Source: Octopus sinensis
Lineage: Eukaryota
Length of the DNA: 64,000 nucleotides
Assembly: GCF_006345805.1 (NCBI RefSeq)
Contig: NC_043010.1
Span: 53,754,001 to 53,818,000, forward strand
Reading direction: 5' to 3'
Below are positions 24,630-55,566 of the stretch, piece by piece. Position 1 is the stretch's first letter; each line of letters begins with the position of its first letter. A program made the position numbers and the translations under genes. The notes below the pieces were generated by a model that saw nothing but the letters and a program-made list of their open reading frames with translations, did not search any database and had not been told where the DNA came from.

Positions 24630-25294
24630 TGAGGCCAAAACTGAATACATAAACAAGTGCCTGTCCAACAGTGATTGCATCATCCATACTCTCAACAATG
24701 CGCCCTTAAATATGGTTTCTGATTACAAATATCTTGGATCATACGTATCATCATCTGGAAAAGACTTTCTATCTAGAAAGGGTATGGCCTGGTCAGCCTG
24801 TAATGACATGCATAAGATCTGGTCATCAAATCTAAGTAGAGACTTCAAACTAAGTAGAAATCTTCAAAGCCACAGTCGAACCAATTCTACTATATGGCTC
24901 AGAAACCTGGACGTTATCAAAGAAGCTTGAGAGGCGGTTGAATGGAAACTACACTCGCCTCCTTATGAGAGCTCAAAATCTCTCGTGGAGGCGCCATCCA
25001 ACCAAAATGCAAATATATGGGAAACTATCACCTGTGTCATCTCTTGTGAAAGGTAGGAGAGTCCAGTTTGCTGGACATTGTTGTAGAGCTGAAGAAGAAG
25101 TAATTTCTACTCTTCTCCTCTGGAAGCCATCTACTCGCAATGCCAGAGGGCGCACACTCTCCTACCCTGATGTAATCTCCAGCGATACAGGCATCCACCA
25201 ACAGGACCTCCGTAATGCCATGATGGACCGTGAAGTCTGGCGTAGCATGGTAAATTCCATTGTCTCGACCACGGTCGAACAATGATGATGATGA
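24630..25294 (+). mobile_element. 5'-truncated RTE-clade LINE (RT C-terminus with (TGA)n tail)
   Basis: AKTEYIN...VSDYKYLGSYV...AWSACNDMHKIWSS, a frameshift to VEPILLYGSETWT, then QFAGHCCR...MMDREVWR. Stop at 25285 followed by tgatgatgat. Confidence 0.9.
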
Positions 25295-30089: not shown

Positions 30090-30320
30090 ACATATAACAT
30101 ATAAGTTATATATATATATGATACATGTATATATACATAGATTGATAGATAGATAGACACACAGACAGGGATACTCAGAGAGTTGCATGCAGGAGTGTGT
30201 ATGTGTGCATGCGAGTACACGTATGTGTGTGTTTGTGCGCACACAGGTATCTTTTTATTTGTGTTTCTCCACCCCACCTCTTGAAAGCGGGTGTAGGTTT
30301 GTTCATCCTCCAAAAGCGTG
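29823..30320. repeat. ~500-bp palindrome (inverted duplication) abutting a LINE 5' junction
   Basis: cacgcttttggaggatga...gagtatccctgtc is mirrored by gacagggatactc...tcatcctccaaaagcgtg, with a few substitutions and a (TA)n centre. Confidence 0.92.
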
Positions 30321-30747
30321 TTATATGGTAGTGAAACATGGGCTACCACAAAGAGAGAAGAGAAAAGACTGGTAACGGCTCAAAGAGCCATGGAAAGGTC
30401 AATGCTTAGTATCTCGTTGAGAGAGCACATAAGTAGCAAGATCATCAGAAAGAAGTCCGGCGTGAGAGATGTCATCGCAGAGTATACACGCAGCAAGTAT
30501 AGATGGGCTGGACACGTCGCCCGGCTCACCGATAATCGGTGGACGCACGCAGTTACCAAGTGGTAGCCGCGTGAGCGGAAAAGACCACCCGGAAGACCTC
30601 CACGACGGTGGAGTTACGATTTCAGGAGGACGATTGGGATCACGTGGATGAGAAAGGCGCGATCCAGAGAGGAGTGGACAGCGTGCTGTGACCAACGGTG
30701 TCAAATAGACGCCTCACGGACTGGTTGGTCAACGTGATCAAGGTGAT
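30319..30747 (+). mobile_element. 5'-truncated RTE LINE 3' end
   Basis: LYGSETWATTKREEKRLVTAQRAMERSML...RWAGHVARLTDNRWT...W*PRERKRPPGRPPRRW. Confidence 0.92.
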
Positions 30748-30751
30748 ATAT

Positions 30752-30782
<31 letters not shown>

Positions 30783-31187
30783 GTATGTATATATATATAT
30801 ATATGTAAATGTTTTTTTTAAATTTTCTCCTGTTTACGGAATTGATCTTTATTTGCGGTTGAAGCTTTGGCTGTTATTTCTAGTGGGTGAATGGCCTATT
30901 ATGGCCGTTCCTTGATTGTTGATGTTGAACTTAAAATGGTCTATGACTATTTAATTTTTTCCCACTAGGCCGCTGGTGGCAAAAAGAATTCTACAAAATT
31001 TTTTTCACCACCCTATATTGATTAATTATGAATTTTCTGGTTAATTCCGTAATGGAATCGACGGCTTATATTTATTTGCTTGCTGCCGATAAATTTGGCG
31101 CGAGTGCGACGATTTGAAAATTTTAGGTCAGATATTGCCTTGGCAGTGTCGGAAATGCCTCGTGAAAATATCTGTTCCGACTTGGCT

Positions 31188-31294
31188 ATTTCTTGCTGAA
31201 GAATCTGAGGGCCTATGGAAGATTGGCTTGATTTAATTTAATCAGGTTAGTTTACCATTAAACAGCAGACGAAACGGTGCATCGTACAAGAAAT
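31188..31294 (+). ncRNA. Type I hammerhead ribozyme, copy 1 (predicted cleavage after GUA, A31286)
   Basis: Stem I ATTTCTTG/CAAGAAAT; CTGAAGA at 31196-31202; stem II TCTG/CAGA (A.C at 10.1/11.1) with a long apical extension; GAAA at 31271-31274; stem III CGG-TGCA-TCG; UA. Confidence 0.88.
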
Positions 31295-31678
31295 TACAGG
31301 GTAAATGTTTTTTTAAATTTTCTCCTGTTTACGGAATTGATCTTTATTTGCGGTTGAAGCTTTGGCTGTTATTTCTAGTGGGTGAATGGCCTATTATGGC
31401 CGTTCCTTGATTGTTGATGTTGAACTTAAAATGGTCTATGACTATTTAATTTTTTCCCACTAGGCCGCTGGTGGCAAAAAGAATTCTACAAAATTTTTTT
31501 CACCACCCTATATTGATTAATTATGAATTTTCTGGTTAATTCCGTAATGGAATCGACGGCTTATATTTATTTGCTGCCGATAAATTTGGCGCGAGTGCGA
31601 CGATTTGAAAATTTTAGGTCAGATATTGCCTTGGCAGTGTCGGAAATGCCTCGTGAAAATATCTGTTCCGACTTGGCT

Positions 31679-31785
31679 ATTTCTTGCTGAAGAATCTGAG
31701 GGCCTATGGAAGATTGGCTTGATTTAATTTAATCAGGTTAGTTTACCATTAAACAGCAGACGAAACGGTGCATCGTACAAGAAAT
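31679..31785 (+). ncRNA. Type I hammerhead ribozyme, copy 2 (predicted cleavage after A31777)
   Basis: Identical in sequence to copy 1, 491 nt downstream. Confidence 0.88.
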
Positions 31786-31905
31786 TACAGGGTAAATGTT
31801 TTTTTAAATTTTCTCCTGTTTACGGAATTGATCTTTATTTGCGGTTGAAGCTTTGGCTGTTATTTCTAGTGGGTGAATGGCCTATTATGGCCGTTCCTTG
31901 ATTGT

Positions 31906-31959
<54 letters not shown>

Positions 31960-32014
31960 GTATATATATATGTATAGATATATGTATCTATATATGTATG
32001 TATATATGTATGTA

Positions 32015-32060
<46 letters not shown>

Positions 32061-32892
32061 GTATGTATGTATGTATGTATGTATGTATGAGGGTACATGG
32101 CTTAATGTTTAGTGTGTTGCATTCACAACCGCTAGATCGTGAGTTTAATTCCTGGATCGGGTGGTGTGTTGAGTTCTTGAGCAAGACACTTCATCCCACG
32201 TTGCTCTGTGATCACACCTCTCACGTGACGCAGAAAGTGAGCTAATGTGCGGCACGAACAATATGTGTGTGTGGGGGTGGGGTATACACGACAAGCTTTC
32301 ACACACTTTCTGTAAACCAAACTCACTTACAAGTCATTATTCGGTCTAGGGCTATAATAGAAAGACCACGTTGCCTCTAAGTGGGACTGAACCCTTAAAG
32401 CCGTTGAAGCAGCCTTCTCCAAAACCGTATTCAATGCGACAAATTTAAAATTTAAAATCACCAAAGAAACTTCAACTATCAGAAAGAGAATTGGTTAGTC
32501 ACATACCACACAACCAGATTTATATTTAGATTATTTTCACAAATTCAATTAGAAAGTGATGAATGGGAAAGCGATAGCGTAAAAAGGAAGAAAACGTTTC
32601 CAAGGAATTTTCAACCAATGACAGAACAACGAATTTAATGAAGAATGTAAAACTAAAAACAAAACGCTTGAATAATGTCTTTGAAATCGATTACCCGGAT
32701 GCATCCGTGCGTCGCCTTAGTGAACACACTGAATGTAACATATGCCCGAATTGGCTCCTCTGTATTGGTGAAAACACACTTGTTGAAACAGACGGGGTCA
32801 TATATACACACATTCACAAGTGTGCAACGCAGGTATGTATACATATGCATACATACATACATACATACATACATACATACACACACCACACT

Positions 32893-33179: not shown

Positions 33180-33565
33180 GGTAGATGTGGGACCTGCAGC
33201 ACCCCACCTACAAATACATAGAGAGCAACAGAGAGATAAGATTTAAAAATGGTGTCATATTCAAAGTAAATGCAGATATGAACTGCAAGACGCAGAACGT
33301 CATATACTGCATAACCTGCCCCACATGCAAGGAGAATTACGTAGGAGAAACTGGTAATTCTTTGTGCCAGCGAGCCAGGATCCACCGACAACATATTCGG
33401 CAGGAAGAACTACGCAAAATACCACTAAGCACACACCTAGCTACATGTGGAGAAGGAAAATTTAAGATATTTCCCTTCTACAAGTGTCCGAAGAATGACA
33501 CCCCCTTCAGGAGGAATATGGAAAAACATTTCATAGCTAAGTTCTCCCCCCAATTAAATGGCTGA
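33180..33565 (+). pseudogene. Penelope-like element GIY-YIG endonuclease fragment (5'-truncated at (TA)n)
   Basis: RCGTC cysteine linker (frameshifted), then MNCKTQNVIYCITCPTCKENYVGETG...R...H..H...E..FI..F.P.LN*. Confidence 0.92.
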
Positions 33566-53892: not shown

Positions 53893-55379
53893 TATATTGT
53901 ACACACACCACACCACATATATAGTAATAGATGAACATGTGCATTCAGATAAGCACATATCTCTGAAAATTTCCAGTTAGATATTATTTAAGTGAATGCT
54001 GTATGTTATAGGAACGTAAATGTTCATATACAAATACTTGGAAACAAAAGATACTGCATACTGTCACGAAAGTAATCACTCCTGAATATGCATAACATCC
54101 TCAACTTCCGACTCACATTTATGGTCACGCATTACATGTCCAGGTAACGTAATCCTGCTAATGGTGTTCTTTAAGCTCCAGCTATGTTTAGCGAGTGTTA
54201 AAACCCCTCATTTTGATGCTCGAACATACTTTACTCTGTGTGGTTTCCCACATAATTTTTAAGCGTTGTTCTCTTTCTGTTTTCTATTTCCTAAATCGCA
54301 TCTGCCAGTGAGGAATTGATTGTGTATAGTTTCTTTAGAAAGGCAAATGCCATTTAGAAGCACGATGGTACAATTATGAGAATTGAGAGTGAAACTCGTA
54401 ATTTCTTTTCCTTGTTCATGTTTGTAATAATCCTTATACATTTATTCATACATGCATTCCTGTGATACTCCATTTTAGCTATCCGGAGTGAATGGATATG
54501 CATATTAACATATTCATATGGAATATACACACATGCGCAAATACTAACTAATGACATTCAATCGCAGTGTGCAGAATAAATATGCAATACACTACGAATG
54601 CAAATTTGCGTACATTGACACAATATACGGACACAGTCTCGTATACACACATAGCAACATGTTCAGATAAGCACGAACCCTGAGAGATGGCATGAATTAG
54701 AGAAATGAACGTTGATTCTATGATAACGAACGGTTTGAATTCTGTGAAAGAAAAAATATAAAGCGTAAAGAAACACTCAAACCTCCCGCATACAGAGACT
54801 CTCACATAAACGCATAAGGTTATATATATATATATATATATGAAGAAGATAGGACAAGATAGAAAATGGTAATATAATTTTATCATGAAGATTTTATCAT
54901 TTTATCATTTTAGTACCTGTTCTAGCCTTTGCAACTTTTTCAACTTTTTCAAGAGTAAAACATGAAAAAAAAATTAAATTGTGGAAAAATTGAATGAAAT
55001 GTATTTAAAAAATATTTCCATAGTTTTCAAATACGTAGGACATTTTCCTTTTAAATGTCTGCCTGAAGATATATTTTATGTGAGGGATGTTGGTTCTGGA
55101 TTTTGATTGTTTAAGCAGCAGTAGCCGAGGAAGGAATCGGCGCAGAAGCAGAAGTAGAAGAAGAAGAAGAAGAAGAAGAAGAAGAAGAAGGAGAAGGAGG
55201 AGGAGGAGAGGAGGAGGGGAAGGAGAAGAAGAAGAAGAAGAGGAAGAAGAAGGAGGAGGAGGAGGAGGAAAAGAAGAGAAATAATAAAAAGACTCGAGTG
55301 ATATGACAGTAGTAGACTGTTGGTAGAATTTTTTTAAATGGTCAAGTGACCTAAAAGAAGGGCTAAAGATGTCGTAAAG

Positions 55380-55566
55380 GGTTAAAATTCATCTGGGAAA
55401 ATAACTTCTTCGTCTTCAAAGGCAACTTCTATTGACAAAGATGGGAACAAAAATTGCCCTATGCTTTGCTAATCTAGTCATGGGATATCTAAAAATCAGT
55501 CTTTATCGTAAGGTACTAGAAAAATACGGCAACCCATTCTCCCTCTACATAGGAGATAACCGAAAG

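Follow-up and report, generated by a model that had tools for sequence, protein, structure and literature searches.

Metazoan non-LTR retrozymes, described from coral, mussel and axolotl, are built of units of 150-450 bp (Cervera and de la Pena, 2020, PMC7229834), and those of vertebrates, 51-972 bp in length, have been presented as derivatives of Penelope-like elements (PLEs), with 24 of the 57 Xenopus families matching a Repbase element (Li, Clavereau and Pollet, 2026, preprint 10.64898/2026.07.22.740005). In the accessible text of these two sources, the mobilizing enzyme of animal retrozymes and the circle as its template are both treated as hypotheses; a target-site duplication, according to the accessible retrozyme literature, is longer than 4 bp when present (further sources for comparison of non-LTR retrozymes, each in its accessible part, are PMC7761336 and PMC4209133). 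Endonuclease-bearing PLEs leave an inverted 5′-truncated copy and a 30-40-bp tail at one end and show a bias toward microsatellites (accessible parts of PMC8557442 and PMC3846280). The tail is the stretch between two internal reverse transcription start sites and has been called unique to PLEs (PMC11167929). In the same study, purified PLE protein cut and extended both target strands, and the single PLE assayed in vitro could do without hammerhead cleavage, its main template being uncut RNA (PMC11167929).

The locus described here lies in the window, i.e., the whole stretch of 64,000 nucleotides of the Octopus sinensis genome that was analysed (contig NC_043010.1), and is a young non-LTR retrozyme insertion; it was likely placed in a TA tract by an enzyme of the Penelope type that copied a single, probably circular, RNA of 491 nt. 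An array with a period of 491 occupies 1105 bp of the + strand (30805-31909) and comprises 482 + 491 + 132 nt, that is, 2.25 units with 99% matches and TA tracts on both sides, much as in the original prediction of about 2.2 nearly identical non-coding units between (TA)n tracts. With the monomer numbered q1-491 (31287-31777), the array runs from q15-491 (unit 1, 30805-31286, exceeding the matching part of unit 2 by 5 nt) through q1-491 (unit 2, 31287-31777, the predicted cleavage-to-cleavage monomer) to q1-132 (partial unit 3, 31778-31909), all on the + strand. The insertion as a whole is one-armed, truncated on the 5′ side at q15, and stops on the 3′ side at q132, a start site denoted B, where it is fused to (AT)n; neither edge coincides with a predicted cleavage site. 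The left (TA)n target tract (30746-30804, unstranded) directly follows the 3′ end of a decayed LINE fragment (30299-30745), which we take to be RTE-like, with one in-frame stop, and it is the tail of this LINE that received the array. The right (TA)n/(TATG)n tract (31910-32088, unstranded; the repeat scan places the start of the TA tract at 31908) is followed immediately by what is presumably a SINE-like head with tRNA-like boxes (32089-32230). Both ends of the array thus lie within (TA)n, which would hide a target-site duplication. Another LINE fragment is present at 24854-25282 of the window. Contigs of four runs, the kinds of which are guessed or uncertain, cover the unit and the adjoining LINE fragment alike, and nothing is concluded from them on transcription or circles.

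The unit is non-coding, the longest ATG frame on the circular sense unit being 55 aa, and lacks the RT + GIY-YIG frame of an autonomous PLE; its G+C content is 37%, and its copies are dispersed in the genome with no LTR arrangement. On the testable features, the element is a non-LTR retrozyme: like those of other metazoans, it consists of tandem, dispersed and self-paired non-coding units with one type I hammerhead each and a G+C content below 50%, from which it differs in the length of the unit (491 nt versus 150-450 bp) and in a long insertion (~58 nt) in stem II (accessible text of PMC7229834). Circles have been shown for metazoan retrozymes (PMC7229834), whereas here the circle is predicted from genomic DNA. 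Tandem hammerhead units that co-occur with PLEs are shared with the vertebrate retrozymes, within whose reported range of 51-972 bp (10.64898/2026.07.22.740005) the unit falls; against the 150-450 bp of PMC7229834 it is long, in line with the original description as a rather long member.

Two identical type I hammerheads offset by 491 nt are found on the + strand at 31188-31294 and 31679-31785, with predicted cuts after 31286 and after 31777, respectively. In the first of these, stem I consists of 8 bp (31188-31195 with 31287-31294) and is followed by the core CUGAAGA (31196-31202), stem II (31203-31270), GAAA (31271-31274) and stem III (31274-31285), a 12-nt near-palindrome with 4 bp and a UGCA loop, and then by GUA. 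The canonical components of type I, namely the core CUGANGA, GAAA, UH and three helices, are all present. The cut positions and the 491-nt monomer foreseen in the original prediction agree with this layout, as do the core, stems, GAAA and GUA that it had assigned to each unit as a complete hammerhead; it had missed the insertion in stem II and the mismatch at the base of this stem (pair 10.1/11.1), which in the window copy is A·C rather than G-C. A mismatch at this place has a precedent in axolotl HHR_Amex2 (accessible text of PMC7229834). Among the checks proposed with the prediction, the Rfam search detects the hammerhead in both units (RF00163, Hammerhead_1) at 18 bits and E 0.48, below the gathering score of 34, and returns nothing at the gathering level; the Rfam miRNA matches are TA-repeat noise. 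The folding check came out as expected, the 121-nt motif adopting stems I-III with z = -4.08 and the whole monomer being strongly self-paired (z = -4.35).

A survey of the motif over the 100 loci mapped here yielded 259 full-span copies in 82 loci, of which 240 could be parsed. At N7, the free position of the core, 218 of the parsed copies have A, 16 have U and 6 have C; H17 is A in all 240, and 239 have one of two palindromes, UGCA or UAUA, as loop III. The changes in the stems are paired. The pair 10.1/11.1 is A·C in 167 of the 240 copies and A-U in 64, the A-U pair belonging to sister subfamilies, and the window subfamily departs from the canonical G10.1-C11.1. In a pairing test on 36 hand-picked copies (20 of them distinct), two-sided changes were found in 5 of the 17 pairs, and 97% of the cells were paired, compared to 36-48% in slid controls, which were preferred to a shuffle control that ignores relatedness. 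These compensatory changes in the sequence indicate that the hammerhead fold is kept under selection.

In the predicted circle, the pairing probability of stem I is only 3-4%, and the active fold lies 3.3 kcal/mol above the minimum; together with the A·C at 10.1/11.1, the low predicted pairing of stem I implies that cleavage may be weak. A ribozyme closed off in this manner would also be in keeping with a stable circle. Stem III of the window copy is predicted to pair with that of a second copy over 12 bp (-17.5 kcal/mol), and cleavage as a dimer, as reported for amphibian hammerheads (PMC7229834), is plausible by analogy. Of nine Xenopus retrozymes assayed in vitro, eight failed to cleave (preprint 10.64898/2026.07.22.740005).

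The dispersed tandem family that had been predicted is readily recovered from the genome. The 23-nt core has 227 exact matches, end motif A has 884, and the two variants of end motif B have 471 + 485 = 956, with no matches in any of the controls; core variants in which N7 is not A add 1759 matches (control 0), a count that excludes N7 = A by design of the pattern and covers sister subfamilies only. The family accordingly numbers at least roughly a thousand insertions, the older subfamily apart. The similarity and motif searches, the genome check proposed with the prediction, led to the 100 mapped loci: the window itself, 59 found by similarity or by the hammerhead motif, 20 that have an A end but lack an exact B in the vicinity, 16 chosen for their A/B pair and 4 in which a B motif stands unpaired. 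The predicted youth of the insertion is borne out by the genomic evidence.

Across these loci the insertions have two fixed outer 3′ ends, A at q230-243 and B at q126-137. Head-to-head arrays with one A and one B end account for 72 of the 100 loci (13 preselected as pairs, 59 not), and there is neither an A+A nor a B+B array; among the others, 4 have one aberrant end, 2 have an end in an assembly gap and 22 were scored as one-armed. An inverted 5′-truncated copy in head-to-head arrangement is thus seen in 78 loci and is absent from the window copy, which represents the minority form. Seven of the 22 loci scored as one-armed hold a second arm or a stub of 10-20 nt, all of them A+B, which leaves about 15 truly one-armed loci, the window included. 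TA runs adjoin 170 of the 174 A/B ends. The two sites are 106 nt apart, the length of the tail, and each falls, 13-17 nt downstream of a hairpin, in a stretch predicted to be single-stranded: in the monomer, the hairpin of site B (q98-119) and the run to q132 occupy 31384-31418 (+), and the hairpin of site A (q183-221) and the run to q238 occupy 31469-31524 (+), each being a putative start of reverse transcription. The counterparts of site B in the other units of the window array are at 30923 and 31909; site A is unused as an end in this copy, and the homologous copy of its region ends at 31029.

This insertion anatomy is a PLE footprint. As in PLEs, the copies are head-to-head with an extension at one end, the targets are (TA)n, and a type I hammerhead lies upstream of the ends; unlike PLEs, the unit has no coding frame, both arms may be multi-unit, and the tail, at 106 nt, is three times the usual 30-40 bp, so that it functions in the manner of a PLE end without being of the standard kind. 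Whereas a PLE in vitro made no difference between strands in the start site used (PMC11167929), here each insertion has strictly one of each. Mobilization by a PLE, as originally proposed, is highly probable because two internal starts with a genomic tail have been reported as unique to PLEs, and the 72 A+B loci, with two fixed ends that are never alike, speak directly to this point. For vertebrate retrozymes, the link to PLEs consists of co-occurrence and similarity of terminal repeats (accessible text of 10.64898/2026.07.22.740005); here it consists of the insertion anatomy.

LINE-1 twin priming produces an internal inversion with short overlaps, a single fixed 3′ end with poly(A) and arms that do not overlap. 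The present arrays share with it the internal inversion and the joins at short overlaps but differ in having a fixed internal site at each outer end and the same sequence repeated in the two arms.

What kind of RNA was copied can be addressed from the variation among units. Substitutions per site amount to 0.006 within an arm, 0.007 between the arms of an insertion and 0.026 between insertions. When insertions are tabulated against the 41 sites informative on lineage, 2494 cells prove uniform and 17 mixed, 16 of these by a single unit, where random draws would give 724 mixed cells; opposite arms agree in 1646 comparisons and disagree in 3. The 52 well-covered insertions carry 24 haplotypes, and of 13 private alleles fixed in at least three units, 12, in 6 insertions, extend across both arms. 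Further arrays among the N7-not-A matches show the same uniformity by eye. The uniform haplotypes of both arms imply that the sequence of each insertion goes back to that of a single unit, and they point to a template of one unit that would have been copied repeatedly. This result weighs against the first alternative, namely that a PLE used the same two internal starts on an uncut linear multimer from a master array, the hammerhead being dispensable or acting later. Uncut RNA was indeed the dominant substrate of a PLE in vitro, where hammerhead mutants inserted normally (PMC11167929), and such a template would fit the weakness at the base of stem II and the small share of molecules predicted to adopt the active fold; but as the units within an array differ by ~0.6%, mosaics would be expected, and instead new alleles are fixed in both arms. 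Given also that arrays with as many as 8 units in an arm turn up repeatedly in different subfamilies and that the hammerhead pairs covary across subfamilies, this explanation is unlikely.

A self-cleaved linear monomer, on which the reverse transcriptase would jump from the 5′ end to the 3′ end of the same molecule without a covalent circle, would also yield a single-unit bottleneck and is to be judged by what happens at the cleavage site. The arms cross this site about 270 times; TA[C/T]AAG is intact in at least 263 of 272 crossings, with no added bases, and the remainder differ mostly in neighboring runs. No clear excess of arm ends was found at the cleavage site: arms stop throughout at about 1.3 per 1000 nt, and 11 stops fall within q487-q10 versus 5.5 expected (p 0.025 before correction for 25 windows). 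This mild enrichment suggests that some templates may be linear. As a general account, however, the linear monomer is quite unlikely, considering that the roughly 270 crossings occur without bases added or lost at the cut, that 96% of the passes continue, and that jumps between molecules would mix haplotypes. In a single locus (L126:873-1825), the units lack q447-491, a deletion of 45 nt that removes half the ribozyme and ends in both crossings at q1-3, the predicted cleavage site; this one case looks as though a broken monomer had been joined to its own cut 5′ end, and a 3-nt microhomology at the deletion offers a DNA-level explanation.

Arm lengths span 0.05 to 8 units. In the end-pattern sample of 71 arms, from which the 3.3-kb arm of L129, with its rearranged 3′ end, was left out, the median is 304 and the mean 459 nt, and the distribution is compatible with a single exponential; 17 arms exceed a full extra unit compared to about 16 expected by hand arithmetic. 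Lengthening of short PLE-type insertions in place, by unequal exchange or slippage with homogenization by conversion, is reminiscent of the satellite birth proposed in the preprint 10.64898/2026.07.22.740005 (accessible text). Adjacent or every-second units do share private changes in several arrays (L034, L048, L050, L062, L087 and L129), a sign of local duplication, of a two-unit template or of assembly polishing, and L068 contains a local duplication; local duplication or polishing therefore also contributes to the homogeneity of arrays. In-place growth as the source of the arrays is nevertheless improbable in view of the single exponential that fits all 71 arm lengths and of the private alleles that span both inverted arms. 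A circular template, which most simply explains the bottleneck, the crossings and the arm lengths together, is thus the rather probable one.

The 77 junctions between arms comprise 48 with an overlap, often of 1-7 nt, 6 that are blunt and 23 with inserted bases. Were a single primed cDNA to fold back and copy itself, a self-priming process discussed in PMC3846280 (accessible text), the second fixed end would be a site of resolution, not of priming, and matching haplotypes in the two arms would follow automatically. Both arms stop at the same template position in 10 of the 77 junctions, as either such a process or two primings would have it, but 67 are asymmetric, the longer arm may carry either end, both ends are fused to TA alike, and two reverse transcription starts have been measured directly for a PLE (PMC11167929), all of which makes fold-back very improbable. 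The assembly is error-prone, with homopolymer indels and gaps, but that the tandem arrangement or the inversions are artefacts is a negligible concern for about 100 loci on many contigs with unique junctions, locus-specific haplotypes and the same two ends.

Under the preferred reading, that of a circular template copied by a PLE, the array would be transcribed and the hammerheads, to judge from their conserved structure, would excise the monomer, which may then be closed into a circle by analogy with the RtcB ligation of PMC7229834 (accessible text). A PLE protein with RT and GIY-YIG domains, possibly a dimer, would cut both strands of the (TA)n, the target seen in nearly all insertions; cDNA would be primed on a single RNA by both cut ends, by one at site A (q238) and by the other at site B (q132), in keeping with the fixed ends and the one-of-each rule. 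Each cDNA would circle the template for a roughly random length, past the cleavage site, giving the observed 0.05 to 8 units per arm, and the two cDNA ends would be joined, often at an overlap of 1-7 nt, into the head-to-head array; in the window copy only the B-primed arm is visible. The specific version of this scheme in which one circular RNA is held by an enzyme dimer that primes on it from the two cut strands of the TA tract, at different fixed sites 106 nt apart, and rolls round the circle in both chromosomal directions is offered tentatively and has slightly less than an even chance of being correct.

If true, this scheme would show for the first time at the level of a genome that the circles of animal retrozymes serve as the template of retrotransposition, and the two PLE start sites would be strand-assigned, one per subunit. 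A tail confined to one end has precedents among PLEs. What the present data add is that retrozymes have it too, and at this length, that the one-of-each rule is strict and that there is a single-unit bottleneck. The accessible text of PMC7229834 describes no head-to-head arrays with two fixed ends for metazoan retrozymes, and the words 'tail' and 'head-to-head' are absent from that of the preprint 10.64898/2026.07.22.740005. In the literature covered, which includes few subscription papers and no repeat databases, neither such retrozyme arrays nor the window family were found described, and the family may stand catalogued as an unnamed or Penelope repeat. The window copy by itself is an ordinary family member; the enzyme and template questions become directly testable because about a thousand young insertions carry the PLE signature and the bottleneck, and because one genome supplies the RNA in defined form, the mapped positions of both starts, an uncomplicated target in (TA)n and candidate enzymes with intact frames. 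The strict one-of-each rule constrains the use of two start sites by PLEs, and for RNA-templated genome writing the interest lies in a small RNA able to direct target-primed insertion from two sides.

The genome contains at least 5029 PLE candidates, of which 150 were scored and 147 have intact RT + GIY-YIG frames. Intact frames include P0001 (781 aa) and P0002 (775 aa), which are 47% identical to each other, and young, Neptune-like PLEs (L160-L168 and L210-L239) have intact RT + GIY-YIG frames of 762-883 aa, an upstream overlapping frame and, near the 3′ end, a minimal hammerhead-like motif in which U3 and A8 replace C3 and G8. The resident PLEs carry a CX4CxxC linker, of the kind tied to Neptune (accessible text of PMC8557442). 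One resident family ends on (AT)n with an optional tail of ~33 nt, and among its 30 loci all three inverted insertions with both arms in view combine one end with the tail and one without. Comparison of the monomer with three PLE families, that is, 80 PLE loci out of the at least 5029 candidates (30 further loci lay outside this comparison), revealed neither a PLE similar to it nor a homologous terminal repeat; the best matches (E 0.02-0.08) are short and A/T-rich, and one of them lay in another inserted element. The 20 unpaired A-end loci, considered as a potential autonomous partner, all proved to be the retrozyme family itself. Two PLE fragments are present in the window, at 33185-33565 and 55376-55566, one a GIY-YIG end and the other an RT piece; the GIY-YIG end is 55% identical to P0002 and 98% identical to other copies of a third PLE family.

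A second hammerhead repeat in the same genome, with a 479-nt unit and an A-U pair at the base of stem II (L193:1024-1980, i.e., G000:C2 near 106.10 Mb, and L180-L209; 4136 first-look candidates), is likewise arranged head-to-head in (TA)n, with two fixed ends ~85 nt apart. Among the 30 loci fetched, inspection by eye gives 12 distinct A+B, 2 aberrant and none with like ends. It has no significant similarity to the monomer, the global score being 177 versus 155 ± 13 for dinucleotide-pair shuffles. The signature of two fixed ends is thus common to the retrozyme, the resident PLE and this second repeat, and if the proposed scheme is true, at least two unrelated hammerhead repeats in the genome would use the dimer/circle route. 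Ahead of the mapped ends (sites A and B, the second repeat and the PLE tail), a hairpin followed by C, U and 9-14 mostly A/U bases can be discerned by eye; a common start signal is possible.

An older subfamily of the window repeat (L270-L299, e.g., L282:930-1713; 2678 first-look candidates), 72-75% identical to it, retains the fold with different pairs in all three stems, with 17 motifs in 15 of 28 loci. These motifs have the core CCGAUGA, a GUC site and a perfect 12-nt palindromic stem III, and 15 of the 17 have G10.1-C11.1; the pattern that detects them admits C4, and a pattern requiring U4 finds no hammerhead there. The longest run identical to the window repeat is q218-237, the block before site A. 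The older subfamily also ends at the same two sites: by eye from the listing, 14 of 16 distinct inverted loci are A+B and 2 are aberrant. Elsewhere in the window, at 2544-3205, a 190-bp unit built of microsatellites is repeated in 3.5 copies that are 94% identical.
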